Source: a virus. Taken from it: a stretch of 40,769 nucleotides of DNA. Shown here one piece after another: positions 2,375-5,404 of this stretch (the stretch's first letter is position 1; each line of letters begins with the position of its first letter). Under the pieces are notes generated by a model that made no database searches, was not told where the DNA came from, and saw only the letters and a list, made by a program, of their open reading frames with translations. A program made the position numbers and the translations under genes. The stretch lies in IMG/VR virus record IMGVR_UViG_3300045988_011209; one strand, written 5' to 3'.

Positions 2375-2713
2375 ATGTGGACATGGCAATTCGAACTGAA
2401 TGATATATTAACCACTCTTACAATTGTAGGTGTAGTTGCAGGTGCAGGATATAGATTGTTGATTATTCCTTTGCTACAACAGTTGGACTCACAACGCGTG
2501 CAAGATAATCTTATTTTTCAAGAAAAATGGGGTGTATTAACTGACACGCTAAAAGATTTGAAAGATGAAATTAAATTATCACGTGCAGAGCGTATTAAAG
2601 CTGAAAGCAAGCAAGTATTACTATCTGCAAAGGTTGAAGCATTAGAAGTGCGTGTTGATGATATTAAGGAGGCGTTACATGAACATTCCACCAAAGCTCA
2701 TCAATACAATTAA
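2375..2713 (+). CDS. membrane protein with one N-terminal TM segment and a coiled coil; possible holin/antiholin-type lysis accessory
   Basis: Hydrophobic segment LTIVGVVAGAGYRLLIIPLL followed by a charged coiled-coil region. Sits immediately upstream of the holin and endolysin. Confidence 0.4.
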   Translation: MWTWQFELNDILTTLTIVGVVAGAGYRLLIIPLLQQLDSQRVQDNLIFQEKWGVLTDTLKDLKDEIKLSRAERIKAESKQVLLSAKVEALEVRVDDIKEALHEHSTKAHQYN

Positions 2714-3011
2714 ACAATCTTATAAATCTGTGAGGGTGGCTAACATCCACCCTACAGGTATATTCGCTACTCGGGCGCTAGTATTTATTATGCTAGTGCC
2801 TATTTTATTGGTAATAACTCAGTATGTTATGTCATTTGTTAGCGGGTACGTATCTGACGAGGCGAACAAGCTGATTAATGTAGGGCTTAATATCATAGAT
2901 CATATATTCATCCCTAGCGTATTAATGGCTGTTGTAGGATTCCTGGGACTTTGGCTAGATAAGAACAATAATGGCATTCCCGATAAATTAGAAGAGGAGG
3001 ATAAACGATGA
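2679..3011 (+). CDS. holin candidate (two TM segments, charged C-terminus)
   Basis: Start chosen at the ATG at 2679, preceded by RBS AAGGAGG; the track ORF begins at 2652. TM segments IFATRALVFIMLVPILLVI and IFIPSVLMAVVGFLGLWL are followed by a hydrophilic tail DKNNNGIPDKLEEEDKR. The stop overlaps the endolysin start (ATGA). Confidence 0.55.
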   Translation: MNIPPKLINTIKQSYKSVRVANIHPTGIFATRALVFIMLVPILLVITQYVMSFVSGYVSDEANKLINVGLNIIDHIFIPSVLMAVVGFLGLWLDKNNNGIPDKLEEEDKR

Positions 3012-3526
3012 AAGTATTTATTAATCCCGGACATGATATTAATTTAGATAGCGGGGCAGTTAACCCTGTATATGGTACACGTGAATGTGACGTGGCACGT
3101 GATGCGGGCAAAATGTTAGCTCGCTATTTGGAAACAGCAGGATGTGAAGTCCGCACTCTACAAGATGACGATTTAGGTCTAGTATGTTCTGAATCTGATT
3201 CTTGGGGCGCAGATATCTTCGTATCGCTTCATTGTAATGCATTTAACACGGAAGCTCGAGGAACTGAAACACTGTATAAGTCCTTTAATGGGCAACGCTT
3301 AGCGAACGATATTCAAAGTCAAATCATCCGCAGCATTAATACAGTTGACCGGGGCGTTAAGAAACGCGACGACCTTTGGGTACTAAATGGCACGGACGCA
3401 ACTGCAGTATTAGTTGAAATGGCATTCATTGATAACGAAGAAGATCATGCTATGCTGACTAATGATTTAGATACTATCGTTCGTGCCATTGCTAGGGGGA
3501 TTACTGACTACGCAGGAGGGATATGA
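3008..3526 (+). CDS. N-acetylmuramoyl-L-alanine amidase (Amidase_3 / CwlA-type) endolysin
   Basis: Matches the conserved Amidase_3 layout: N-terminal INPGHD/GAV, an SLHCNAF zinc-ligand region, and VLVEMAFIDNEED near the C-terminus. Confidence 0.9.
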   Translation: MKVFINPGHDINLDSGAVNPVYGTRECDVARDAGKMLARYLETAGCEVRTLQDDDLGLVCSESDSWGADIFVSLHCNAFNTEARGTETLYKSFNGQRLANDIQSQIIRSINTVDRGVKKRDDLWVLNGTDATAVLVEMAFIDNEEDHAMLTNDLDTIVRAIARGITDYAGGI

Positions 3527-4011
3527 TGTATGACAAACTCAAAGTTTTACTTAATAGCCTTAGTTACCGCCATGCTGTTATCGGTGGTATTGTGCTCCTC
3601 TCCGTCTTTTGCTGCTGGTACATCTTCCACGAGCCAAGTGGAGCCAACAATCACGATTCCCTTAACACAGTGGAACGAATTGAAAAGCAACAACGAGAAA
3701 GCCTTGAACTTAATCGAAGCATCCAACGTTCCATTGACCGAAGCTCAGACCTTAGTCATGAAGCAAAAGAACGAATTGACCGAAGCACACAATACAATAT
3801 CGACATTGGAAACAGAATTGATGAAAGCCAAAATGCTATCCATGAAGCAAGAAGTTACCTTGTCAGAAATGCAGAGCTCATTAACAGAATTGAAGGGTCA
3901 AATAGAGAACGACAAGCGAACAATCAAACGACTACGGATGCAGCGCAACCTATCTCAGATGGTGGGAGCGGGAGCAATAATTGGAGTAGTGATTCATCGG
4001 TAAAGAGGTGA
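3523..4011 (+). CDS. alternative-frame ORF fully overlapping 3530..4003; i-spanin-like layout (N-terminal TM plus periplasmic repeat-rich domain). It may be a genuine embedded gene or only a shadow ORF
   Basis: The ATG overlaps the endolysin stop (ATGA), and RBS GGAGGG sits 6 nt upstream. N-terminal TM AVIGGIVLLSVFCCWYIF. Its codon usage is atypical for this genome (many CGA and CTT codons). Confidence 0.3.
   Translation: MMYDKLKVLLNSLSYRHAVIGGIVLLSVFCCWYIFHEPSGANNHDSLNTVERIEKQQRESLELNRSIQRSIDRSSDLSHEAKERIDRSTQYNIDIGNRIDESQNAIHEARSYLVRNAELINRIEGSNRERQANNQTTTDAAQPISDGGSGSNNWSSDSSVKR
3530..4003 (+). CDS. spanin-like envelope protein (N-terminal signal peptide, central coiled coil, C-terminal TM); codon usage fits the genome
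   Basis: Signal-like N-terminus MTNSKFYLIALVTAMLLSVVLCSSPSFA, heptad-rich middle, C-terminal MVGAGAIIGVVIH. Uses TTA/TTG for Leu like the other genes in the genome. Starts 4 nt after the endolysin stop. Confidence 0.5.
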   Translation: MTNSKFYLIALVTAMLLSVVLCSSPSFAAGTSSTSQVEPTITIPLTQWNELKSNNEKALNLIEASNVPLTEAQTLVMKQKNELTEAHNTISTLETELMKAKMLSMKQEVTLSEMQSSLTELKGQIENDKRTIKRLRMQRNLSQMVGAGAIIGVVIHR

Positions 4012-4052
4012 TCCAAATATCTCCCTAGCCTTGCGAGGGTGGACGTAAGGCA

Positions 4053-4086
4053 AGCCCCAGGTAAATACTACCTGGGGCTTTTTGTG
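4053..4086 (+). terminator. rho-independent terminator after the lysis cassette
   Basis: Stem AGCCCCAGGTA / TACCTGGGGCT followed by a TTTTTGTGTTT run. Confidence 0.6.
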
Positions 4087-4110
4087 TTTGACATCATTTT
4101 GACATCAATT
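4087..4110 (+). repeat. two direct copies of TTGACATCA (TTTGACATCATTTTGACATCAATT); putative integrase arm-type binding sites on one attP arm
   Basis: The same 24-mer recurs at 4309..4332 and a third partial copy lies at 4282..4295, giving five TTGACATCA copies flanking the tRNA-fragment core. Confidence 0.5.
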
Positions 4111-4210
4111 TATTAAAAAATATATAGAAATATAGTTAAATGTGATACTATGAAATGCAGTTAAATACTGTGTTTACTGGATTTATCTATAGTGTGAAAA
4201 TTAACTCTTA

Positions 4211-4249
4211 ATCAGGGTGTCCAGGGTTCGAACCCCTGGTGGTCCACCA
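4211..4249 (+). other. 3' fragment of a tRNA gene (T-arm, acceptor 3' strand and CCA); putative attP core
   Basis: T-stem CAGGG, loop TTCGAAC, stem CCCTG, then GTGGTCC, A and CCA. No matching 5' acceptor strand or D/anticodon arms lie upstream, so this is a fragment of the kind carried by tRNA-integrating phages. Confidence 0.6.
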
Positions 4250-4252
4250 AAA

Positions 4253-4281
4253 TAAACCCGCACTACTGTGCGGGTTTTTCT
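4253..4281. terminator. bidirectional stem-loop terminator between attP and the integrase 3' end
   Basis: AACCCGCAC-TACT-GTGCGGGTT is flanked by A-runs on one side and T-runs on the other. Confidence 0.55.
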
Positions 4282-4332
4282 TTTGACATCATTTTTATCA
4301 GGGTACCCTTTGACATCATTTTGACATCAATT
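4282..4332 (+). repeat. three direct copies of TTGACATCA (second attP arm), ending at the integrase stop
   Basis: TTTGACATCATTTT at 4282..4295 and TTTGACATCATTTTGACATCAATT at 4309..4332. Confidence 0.5.
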
Positions 4333-5404
4333 AGAATATGTTTGAAATCTTTTCTACCACATCAGCTTCCATAATCGGAGTAACGTGAGAGTAGGTATCC
4401 ATCGTTTGTTGATATGAAGAATGGCCAAGCCTCATTTGTACGACTTTAAAGTTTACGCCTGCTTCTAATAATAAGGTAGCATGGGTATGGCGAGTATCGT
4501 GCATCGTAAAGTCAGGCCTACCGATTGCAGTAGCAAACTTTTTACACTTTAGAGAAACTTTAGCCGGATCACGAGGGTTTCCGAACTTACCAGGGAACAC
4601 GAGATTATTATTTCTCCAGTTCGTTGCTTTTAATCTTCGTTTATCGACGTGTGTGCGAAGTTTTAGTAGCTCTGCGATAGTTTTATCGTCGAGTGAAATA
4701 GAACGCCTAGACGAGCTATTTTTAGTTGTTTTTGAGATAGTTGTGACTTCGTCGATACGTAAAACTGTCTGATTGACGGTTAACGTCTTTTGTTTTAAGT
4801 TGACATCATCCCAGGCTAAACCGAGTATCTCGCTGCGGCGCAAACCCGTAGTAAATGCTAGCTTGAACAGGGCATGCCATTCGACATCATCAATTTGTTC
4901 GAGGAAGGTTTCAACTTCTTCTTTAGATAGCGTTACCATTTCACGTTTGCGTTCTTGTTTAGGCTTCTTAACCAGCGTGGCCACGTTCTTCGATATTATC
5001 TCATCCATGACCGCCTGTTTAAGGATAGCCCTAAGAACGGTTAGCGTATAGCCGATAGTCCTGGCTGATAAGTGGCTCATGCTATCCATTAAAGCTCTTA
5101 CATTTAATGCGGATAGCTCGACTAATCGTATCGAACCTATGAAAGGTACAATATAGGTTTTAATAATATATTGGTAAGAGGAGAGGGTATTTTGTGAAAT
5201 CGTATCCTTCTTAAGTCTGATCCAATAGTCACACCATCTCTCTATTGTAATCGTATTATCGTAGTTAGCACATTGTGCTAGTGATTCAACGTAAGCATCA
5301 CGTTCAGCAATAGCAGCTTTCTTGGTAGTACCATAAAAGTATTTACGCTTACCATTTATCATTTTAGATACTTGGTAGCGTCCATCAACTCGTTTTTTAG
5401 CCAT
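4331..5404 (-). CDS. int: tyrosine integrase (phage integrase family, 357 aa)
   Basis: Catalytic signature HDTRHTHATLL...LGHSSYQQTMDTYSHV with the conserved R, HxxR, H and Y. An N-terminal domain of about 170 aa is present. The gene is adjacent to the attP-like tRNA fragment. Confidence 0.9.
   Translation of the reverse strand: MAKKRVDGRYQVSKMINGKRKYFYGTTKKAAIAERDAYVESLAQCANYDNTITIERWCDYWIRLKKDTISQNTLSSYQYIIKTYIVPFIGSIRLVELSALNVRALMDSMSHLSARTIGYTLTVLRAILKQAVMDEIISKNVATLVKKPKQERKREMVTLSKEEVETFLEQIDDVEWHALFKLAFTTGLRRSEILGLAWDDVNLKQKTLTVNQTVLRIDEVTTISKTTKNSSSRRSISLDDKTIAELLKLRTHVDKRRLKATNWRNNNLVFPGKFGNPRDPAKVSLKCKKFATAIGRPDFTMHDTRHTHATLLLEAGVNFKVVQMRLGHSSYQQTMDTYSHVTPIMEADVVEKISNIF

Follow-up and report, generated by a model that had tools for sequence, protein, structure and literature searches.

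Lysis of Gram-negative hosts needs a third function after holin and endolysin, and this function is supplied by spanins (PMC6139136). The subject of this work is a pair of genes, F1 and F2, that lie almost entirely on top of one another in the IMG/VR virus record IMGVR_UViG_3300045988_011209, a 40.8-kb temperate phage genome (40,769 nucleotides (nt); this whole stretch is called the window, and all coordinates are its own, on the + strand unless stated otherwise). F1 (3526..4011) and F2 (3530..4003) form the last cistron of a holin-endolysin lysis cassette, 3′ of an Amidase_3 endolysin. Taken together, the observations are best explained by a true dual-coding locus that acts as a lipoprotein-free counterpart of the spanins in phages of the Negativicutes, an explanation that is considered fairly likely.

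In phage lambda, the Rz/Rz1 pair likewise closes a holin-endolysin cassette, and its second gene is nested within the first in the +1 frame. The product of the outer gene, Rz, is a type II protein of the inner membrane whose periplasmic domain is helical and coiled-coil, a layout that F1 appears to share, and F2, like an o-spanin gene, overlaps the i-spanin-like gene in a shifted frame at all 110 loci assembled here. In embedded spanin pairs the inner gene starts at 0.4–0.5 of the outer gene's length in approximately 70% of cases and has its own start region (PMC6139136). In contrast, F2 starts 4 nt after F1, shares its Shine–Dalgarno (SD) sequence and runs along its whole length; in distant relatives F2 even reaches 49–100 nt past the end of F1. 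The pair therefore departs from all described embedded pairs in its near-complete overlap, its shared SD sequence and an inner gene that is as long as the outer one or longer. The products differ as well. Rz1 is a short, proline-rich outer-membrane lipoprotein, whereas F2, a 157-residue coiled coil, has no lipobox, carries a signal for signal peptidase I and ends in a hydrophobic tail.

The defining feature of the unimolecular u-spanins is a lipoylation signal at the N-terminus, by which this end of the protein is located in the outer membrane (PMC6139136). F2 resembles the u-spanin gp11 of phage T1 in combining an N-terminal export signal with a putative C-terminal hydrophobic anchor at the end of a lysis cassette; unlike gp11, it has no lipoylation signal and is always accompanied by the overlapping F1. 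Moreover, the periplasmic domain of T1 gp11 has been drawn with beta-sheet domains (Kongari et al., figure, PMC6139136), whereas F2 is predicted to form one long helix. For want of a lipoprotein signal in its sequence, F2 is neither a canonical o-spanin nor a canonical u-spanin.

Solutions without lipoproteins do exist. The 'disruptin' gp28 of phage PhiKT is reported to be a small cationic peptide that disrupts the outer membrane in phages without spanins (bioRxiv 10.1101/515445). Compared by that description, the F2 tail is similar in joining a basic cluster to a hydrophobic segment, whereas F2 as a whole is a 157-residue exported coiled coil that is paired with F1. Overlap of a lysis gene with another gene also has a precedent: the lysis gene E of phiX174 lies inside gene D and covers part of it, D itself encoding a scaffolding protein that has no connection with lysis. 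The F1/F2 pair shares with it a lysis-related membrane protein encoded within another gene, in a shifted frame on the same strand, but differs in that both genes are co-extensive, both products are envelope proteins and the arrangement is conserved at ~25% identity.

Two co-extensive open reading frames

An earlier note on this DNA, made from its letters and their open reading frames (ORFs), had described two nearly co-extensive ORFs at 3523..4011 (162 amino acids (aa)) and 3530..4003 (157 aa). Both were confirmed to be open, and they are the sole open frames of the six across this segment: the third + frame contains 21 stop codons and the minus frames contain 5–13. As set out below, the conserved start of F1 is at 3526, which gives a protein of 161 aa. 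The substitution pattern marks F2, in the +1 frame of F1, as the primary frame.

The annotation of this contig by both JGI and NCBI calls F2 alone (P0121). This agrees with the possibility that F1 is a non-coding shadow ORF, and that F2 is the sole gene, its coiled-coil composition and codon choice having left the −1 frame free of stops. When the F2 protein was held fixed and its synonymous codons were redrawn according to window usage, a mean of 11.8 stops arose in the F1 frame, against 0 observed, and 0 of 20000 draws were open. The reverse resampling, with F1 fixed, gave a mean of 9.6 stops and again 0 of 20000 open draws. Elsewhere in the window, stops occupy 11.4% of codons in the equivalent −1 frame of the other long ORFs. 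The longest open shifted-frame runs there are 99 codons, in what is possibly a spurious ORF, and 51 codons, compared with 157 here.

The absence of stops can be traced to individual codons. For a stop to arise in F1, the last base of an F2 codon must be T and the following codon must start with AA, AG or GA. None of the 23 F2 codons at risk in the window ends in T, whereas T occupies 51% of the equivalent sites in 41 control genes (P ~7e-8). Both resampling and at-risk-site counts thus bear out the statement that double openness is improbable by chance. The argument from codon preference, by which F2 had been thought to match the rest of the genome, did not survive: the codon-adaptation index of F2 (0.683) is the lowest of all long ORFs, and that of F1 is 0.746. 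A low index in F2 is what a constrained overlap would produce.

Conservation of both frames in related loci

Ten prophage loci from V. parvula, V. dispar and V. denticariosi genomes and metagenome-assembled genomes were combined with 80 loci from viral contigs, giving 90 loci, and distant loci were then added to give 110 usable loci in total. Protein searches matched ~2570 clusters (at 90% identity) per frame, and gene callers were found to choose the F1 or the F2 frame more or less arbitrarily. F2 starts with ATG in 90 of the 90 loci and is 157–158 aa long in 88 of them; the F1 frame of these loci is open for ~161 codons. Departures from this pattern are an F1 that ends at codon 134 (three loci), truncation of both frames (one locus), a short F2 alone (one locus) and frames that reach the contig end (two loci).

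Distant relatives were sought by joining the F1 and F2 proteins end to end and comparing them exhaustively with 1.84 billion cluster representatives. Full-length relatives of both halves were found down to about 25–35% identity, with F2 relatives reaching about 25% identity to the F2 of the window. The DNA of 19 distant loci was obtained via family alignments and exact look-up. In 110 of the 110 loci, which come from Veillonella and Phascolarctobacterium prophages and metagenomic viral contigs, hidden Markov models (HMMs) of the F1 and F2 families match overlapping ORFs, and F2 is always in the +1 frame of F1. Homologues in which one frame is interrupted, named in the earlier note as the outcome that would speak against dual coding, were looked for; both frames are open in all 110 loci. 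In the F1 frame of each distant lineage, 5–17 stops would be expected if F2 alone mattered. Searches of 50,697 GenBank phage records by blastn (distant mode) and by tblastn, using both frames and two distant relatives, gave no match.

Several database proteins switch from one frame to the other, from F2 to F1 (P0272, P0285 and P0288) or from F1 to F2 (P0273 and P0308), and their junctions differ. Such chimeras in both directions would be consistent with programmed ribosomal frameshifting, which would yield a fusion of the F1 membrane helix with the F2 coiled coil and tail, or of the F2 signal peptide with the F1 helix. The switch points differ, however, as they would if indels or faulty assemblies had produced them somewhere in a collection of billions of predicted proteins, and these are the most likely origin of all five. 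No conserved slippery site was noticed, although no dedicated scan was made. In addition, each frame keeps its own SD-spaced start and N-terminal targeting signal in the 110 loci, and a fusion product would not need both. Frameshifting is therefore regarded as highly improbable. The chimeras are nevertheless an independent sign that both frames overlap in those relatives.

Selection on each frame

Nucleotide diversity at F2 codon positions 1, 2 and 3 is 0.09, 0.08 and 0.21, respectively, and the ratio of non-synonymous to synonymous substitution rates (dN/dS) of F2 is ~0.28. This pattern indicates a normally evolving coding frame that is the more constrained of the two; correspondingly, alignment columns average 85% identity in F2 and 74% in F1. 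The better conservation of F2 and the peak of variation at its third positions would both be expected if F1 were a shadow ORF. The naive dN/dS of F1 (0.92) also tells against a coding F1, though the measure is biased in overlapping genes and is uninformative here because the 'synonymous' sites of F1 are second positions of F2.

Other measures point the other way. Across 80 unique F2 sequences, T is found at 4 of 1866 at-risk sites, compared with 25% at the non-risk sites of the same gene and 51% in control genes, and stop-creating codons are specifically missing from independent distant lineages as well. Among possible F2-synonymous changes, 1 of the 22 that would create an F1 stop was observed, as opposed to 137 of the 262 others. 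The F2-synonymous transversions that were observed are gentler on F1 than those that were not (mean BLOSUM62 score 0.89 versus −0.64; one-sided Mann-Whitney P = 6e-6), as expected if changes are filtered for their effect on F1; observed and unobserved F2-synonymous transitions showed no difference in F1 conservativeness.

Compared with the tail-fibre, holin, amidase and integrase genes of the same loci, F2 has a ~3-fold lower synonymous substitution rate (dS); among close relatives its dS is 0.12–0.29, against 0.3–0.9 in neighbouring genes. At four-fold sites in 33 close relatives, F2 has a diversity of 0.126, compared with 0.289 and 0.376 for the two genes upstream and 0.15–0.41 for the non-coding DNA just downstream; by this measure the overlap has about one third of the diversity of both flanks. 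The greater diversity of the flanks shows that the overlap alone, and not the region as a whole, has low diversity. The suppressed synonymous variation that dual coding predicts was thus found in both comparisons. A segment that is simply younger was considered as a cause of the low dS and was ruled out, as both flanks, including the adjacent downstream non-coding DNA, are 2–3 times more diverse.

Homology of the F1 family extends to the same ~25–35% identity, with its membrane helix and C-terminal motif conserved, which also tells against a shadow ORF. On all these grounds the shadow-ORF explanation is very unlikely, and both frames are almost certainly functional genes under selection.

The diversity of F2 at four-fold sites is lowest (0.077) at 3926–4000, over the apparently dispensable disordered tail of F1, although this value comes from a small sample (n = 15). 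Such low diversity is not predicted by constraint on the F1 protein alone, and an RNA-level or terminator-proximal constraint is possible in this region.

A shared translation start

A single SD sequence, GGAGGG (3515..3520), serves both starts. It ends 2 nt before the ATG at 3523, 5 nt before the ATG at 3526 and 9 nt before the ATG at 3530. The earlier note had placed this sequence 6 nt upstream of an F1 start at 3523, but the actual gap is 2 nt, and in most homologues the ATG at 3523 reads ATA or TAT; the conserved start of F1 is the ATG at 3526. The TGA stop codon of the endolysin (3524–3526) overlaps this start region.

In 99 of the 110 loci the two starts form the sequence ATGNATG, with the F2 start 4 nt after the F1 start and both lying 5–9 nt past one SD sequence. 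Three loci have an overlapping TTGTG (TTG/GTG) arrangement, and the remainder have offsets of −8, 22 or 31 nt, with one outlier in start offset stemming from the start-picking heuristic. The second residue of F1 is near-invariant (Tyr or His, codon YAT), because this codon carries the AT of the F2 ATG.

Ribosomes recruited by one SD sequence would partition between two out-of-frame starts, and this partitioning would fix the ratio of F1 to F2. The S105/S107 holin of lambda is expressed from two in-frame starts a few nucleotides apart, whose products differ by two residues and are made in proportions determined at initiation. The F1/F2 pair is similar in its close dual start behind one ribosome-binding region and in deriving two lysis-cassette proteins from one stretch of mRNA. 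It differs in that the starts are out of frame, being offset by 4 nt, and give two entirely different proteins. If read correctly, an out-of-frame ATGNATG dual start behind one SD sequence would be a simple, conserved means of co-expression at a fixed ratio.

The F1 protein

F1 (161 aa) resembles an i-spanin in being a predicted type II membrane protein; it is matched by the F1-family HMM in 110 of 110 loci and by phrog_18860 (E = 6e-44). A transmembrane helix is predicted at residues 16–34 (HAVIGGIVLLSVFCCWYIF; 3571..3627), with a Kyte-Doolittle mean of 2.06 over 19 residues. AlphaFold2 modelling of F1 from a 22-sequence alignment placed a helix at residues 12–35, followed by a short linker, a long, presumably periplasmic helix at residues 43–135 (3652..3930) and a disordered tail at residues 136–161. 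The long helix carries the conserved C-terminal motif EARSYL.RN.EL..RIE..NR and, by reading of the sequence, has heptad-like spacing with many polar core positions.

The low-complexity tail (residues 135–161; 3928..4008) is predicted to be disordered, with predicted local distance difference test (pLDDT) scores <50. It is missing from L004, L007 and L009, the loci in which F1 has 134 codons, and from most distant relatives, whose F1 ORFs stop 49–100 nt ahead of the F2 stop. All family members have this succession of a membrane helix and a soluble helix, and F1-like relatives keep the N-terminus M[YH][DE]K, the membrane helix and the motifs DYQRA..VER..EQQR.S.ELN and ERN..L...[IV]E..N. From its sequence and model, the bulk of F1 would be periplasmic, in a type II orientation.

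All 22 of 22 F1-family members match phrog_18860, a family of unknown function. Weaker matches were obtained to phrog_739 (10 of 22 members) and phrog_214 (5 of 22), the best with E = 1.6e-5; the F1 of the window itself matches phrog_739 with E = 0.036. Among the 19 families matched by F1-family members, 10 are annotated as 'Rz-like spanin', although all of these matches are weak. The i-spanin-like reading of F1 given in the earlier note therefore holds on topology, on position and on these weak Rz-like family matches.

The F2 protein

F2 (157 aa) is matched by the F2-family HMM in all 110 loci. Its hydropathy indicates a signal peptide at residues 1–28 (3530..3613), with a predicted signal peptidase I site SFA|A; an AxA-like site is conserved family-wide. 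The most conserved block of the family alignments is an N-terminal motif, TITIPLTQWNELK (3647..3685), with the family consensus [TS]-[IV]-x-[IV]-P-[ILM]-x-x-W-x-x-L-K. According to the structural model, this motif would sit at the membrane-distal tip of the mature protein.

AlphaFold2 modelling of F2 from a 28-sequence alignment gave a signal helix at residues 4–22, a disordered segment at 23–44 and a helix at 45–156, with a mean pLDDT of 82 and values of 87–96 over residues 80–150. A heptad coiled coil (residues 45–143; 3662..3958) lies within this one continuous predicted helix. It leads into a cluster with six basic residues, KRTIKRLRMQR (residues 129–139), and then a hydrophobic Gly/Ala-rich segment, MVGAGAIIGVVIH (residues 144–156), which are recognised by hydropathy and family pattern and together span 3914..3997. 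The hydrophobic stretch is 13 residues long; its mean hydropathy is 2.09 with a 13-residue window and it goes undetected with a 19-residue window. The model continues the helix through this hydrophobic end. The pattern at the C-terminus is conserved and consists of RRQRN.W, 13–16 hydrophobic residues and then one to three basic residues.

F2 was also considered as a lipoprotein, and this was rejected. Cys22 occurs in the sequence VVLC, with a non-canonical Leu at −1; L006 and L008–L010 have Gly or Ala in its place, and in distant relatives it is absent or displaced. No lipobox is conserved, and the AxA-type signal peptidase I site is kept instead. The earlier description of F2 as u-spanin-like is consequently not supported in the defining sense, since there is no lipoprotein signal; the signal peptide and the coiled coil were found, and the C-terminal hydrophobic stretch has 13 residues.

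PHROGs contains a family for F1, and no specific family matching F2 was found there. Pfam searches with the F1 and F2 families returned sub-threshold coiled-coil noise only, and sequence and profile searches of the PDB with both proteins returned generic coiled coils and designed helical proteins only.

Position in the lysis cassette and host

The endolysin that precedes the pair (3008..3526) is an N-acetylmuramoyl-L-alanine amidase (Pfam Amidase_3, E = 5e-35; phrog_435 endolysin, E = 1e-61). The cassette begins with hol1 (2375..2713), a candidate holin or antiholin membrane protein (phrog_8369 'hol-like', E = 3e-11), followed by hol2 (2679..3011), a small membrane protein and candidate holin (phrog_27828, E = 6e-55; weak Phage_holin_1 match). 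The two ORFs share 35 nt, and they may encode a holin/antiholin pair or the parts of a two-component holin. The divergence of hol1 between relatives is very fast, and its dS is often saturated.

In related phages the pair directly follows endolysins of three families: Amidase_3 (the window and L108), Amidase_2 (L091, L096, L099 and L109) and Peptidase_M15_3 (L105). Holins of the Phage_holin_4_1 family are found upstream of the pair in L105, L108 and L109. Such an association with endolysins exchanged between families is typical of lysis-cassette components and argues against a 'moron' tied to the attachment site. In L093 the ORF before the pair (2074–2487; 137 aa) has no Pfam match, and for the corresponding ORF of L110 (2567–2986; called gene 122 aa) none is on record. 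As these ORFs occupy the position of the endolysin in other loci, they may represent an undescribed endolysin family.

Both frames might be real and yet serve no function in lysis, the pair being instead a lysogenic-conversion, superinfection-exclusion or envelope-modifying module at the prophage end. It is the last locus before the terminator and the attP/integrase region, a typical 'moron' position; neither protein has significant homology to any characterised protein in the searches run; and F2 does not have the lipoprotein signal that spanins need. On the other side, the pair is translationally coupled to the endolysin stop or lies within a few nt of it, the endolysin families that it follows in distant phages are unrelated to one another, further + strand ORFs and not an integrase come after the pair in L093 and L099, and the F1 family matches Rz-like spanin families repeatedly. 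A module without a role in lysis is accordingly judged unlikely, and the pair probably has a lysis-cassette function.

A diderm host, which the earlier note had implied, was confirmed: the ten prophage loci lie in Veillonella genomes. L108 was assigned to Phascolarctobacterium faecium (Negativicutes, Acidaminococcales) via a member of the 90% cluster of its amidase, and the cluster of P0259 was resolved to Veillonella sp. by its cluster name. The pair thus occurs in two orders of the Negativicutes at least, the Veillonellales and the Acidaminococcales.

The outer membrane of Negativicutes is tethered by OmpM. Negativicutes have a lipopolysaccharide-containing outer membrane and no LolA/LolB homologues, so that delivery of lipoproteins to their outer membrane is uncertain (PMC5007114). 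As LolA and LolB are absent, textbook o-spanin or u-spanin lipoproteins should not work in these hosts. A six-frame search of the window with a simple signal-plus-lipobox pattern found no credible lipoprotein ORF, the single spurious hit being a 33-aa ORF with a TTG start; this fits a host without LolA/LolB.

A proposed mechanism of outer-membrane disruption

It is proposed that one mRNA segment (3526..4011) is read in two frames to give two unrelated single-pass envelope proteins. F1 would be anchored in the inner membrane by its N-terminal helix, with a helix of ~90 residues projecting into the periplasm. F2 would be exported via a cleavable, non-lipoprotein signal peptide and would form a heptad coiled coil of ~100 residues, with its tail holding it in a membrane. 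Together, F1 and F2 would replace Rz/Rz1 and, without a lipoprotein, disrupt the outer membrane as the third step of lysis.

In this arrangement F1 would be anchored N-terminally and F2 C-terminally, with helices of ~14–15 nm each, as estimated from residue counts. If both proteins were held in the inner membrane, their helices would be antiparallel in chain direction, and at the end closest to the outer membrane the C-terminal motif of F1 would come to lie beside the N-terminal tip of F2. Alternatively, the short basic and hydrophobic tail of F2 could insert into the outer membrane.

A different division of labour can be envisaged in which one protein alone breaches the outer membrane while the other is a regulator (an inhibitor, timer or chaperone); F2, for instance, could act as a unimolecular spanin free of lipid or through a membrane-active cationic tail. 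F2 has features at both ends that would suit this role, namely the distal tip motif and the basic cluster with its hydrophobic tail, and two starts competing for one SD sequence would fix a ratio in the manner of lambda S105/S107. The long helices of similar length that both proteins keep fit a complex equally well, and a single effector is considered rather improbable. The preferred reading is that F1 and F2 would both be made and would act together, with the outer membrane as their target.

A number of points weigh against the joint action of F1 and F2 as a spanin equivalent. The F2 tail, with 13–16 hydrophobic residues, is short for an inner-membrane helix, and its basic cluster lies on the predicted periplasmic side, contrary to the positive-inside rule. 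F2 does not carry the lipoprotein signal of o-spanins and u-spanins, and no route by which it might attach to the outer membrane was found. The F1 model has a mean pLDDT of 66, which gives moderate confidence only, and the similarity between F1 and Rz-like families is weak (E = 1e-5 to 1e-2) and perhaps reflects a shared layout and not homology. The pair lies at the prophage end beside attP, where accessory 'moron' genes also occur, and among the distant loci hosts were resolved for two only. The production and function of F1 and F2 are themselves deduced.

With these points taken into account, outer-membrane disruption by the pair, as the equivalent of a spanin, is slightly favoured. The earlier proposal of an Rz/Rz1-style dual-coding pair was supported in its dual coding and near-complete overlap, and the spanin function that it assigned is a deduction from position and architecture.

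Novelty and significance

In the literature library searched, no paper was found that links spanins with phages of Negativicutes or Veillonella. It is a tentative proposal, with odds a little short of even, that the pair is an undescribed, lipoprotein-free and Lol-independent outer-membrane machine whose subunits are co-encoded over nearly their whole length in a ratio set by start choice. There is a substantial chance that it represents a new class of outer-membrane disruption system. If this is true, F1 and F2 would constitute a new class of spanin and would be among the longest and most deeply conserved co-extensive dual-coding pairs known in bacteriophages.

The pair is a candidate for how phages lyse diderm Firmicutes. 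It would also be an unusually clean natural case of complete dual coding, with two helical membrane proteins of ~150 residues each, and as such would be useful for studies of overlapping-gene evolution and as a benchmark for gene callers. Veillonella and Phascolarctobacterium are abundant human commensals, and their phages' lysis modules matter for virome annotation and lysis engineering.

Surroundings of the cassette

An intrinsic-terminator-like hairpin, formed by a 12-nt perfect inverted repeat and followed by the T-run TTTTTGTGTTT, closes the lysis operon at 4052..4080. Beyond this terminator and a probable attP, the integrase gene lies on the − strand (4331..5404), and a second terminator hairpin (4249–4282) is found just upstream of it. 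An exact 24-nt direct repeat, TTTGACATCATTTTGACATCAATT, which is itself an 11-nt tandem, occurs at 4087–4110 and 4309–4332. Between the two copies lies a stretch that resembles the 3′ end of a tRNA (GGGTTCGAACCCCTGGTGGTCCACCA; 4205–4250), and ARAGORN detected no complete tRNA. The repeat-flanked, tRNA-like stretch is probably attP with arm-type sites for the integrase.

Upstream of the cassette, 1120–2370 encodes a tail-fibre-like ORF of 416 aa with several collagen-like Gly-X-Y runs, which alternate with repeated modules of the form 'KGPKGE...F.YSDFT.EQL..L'.

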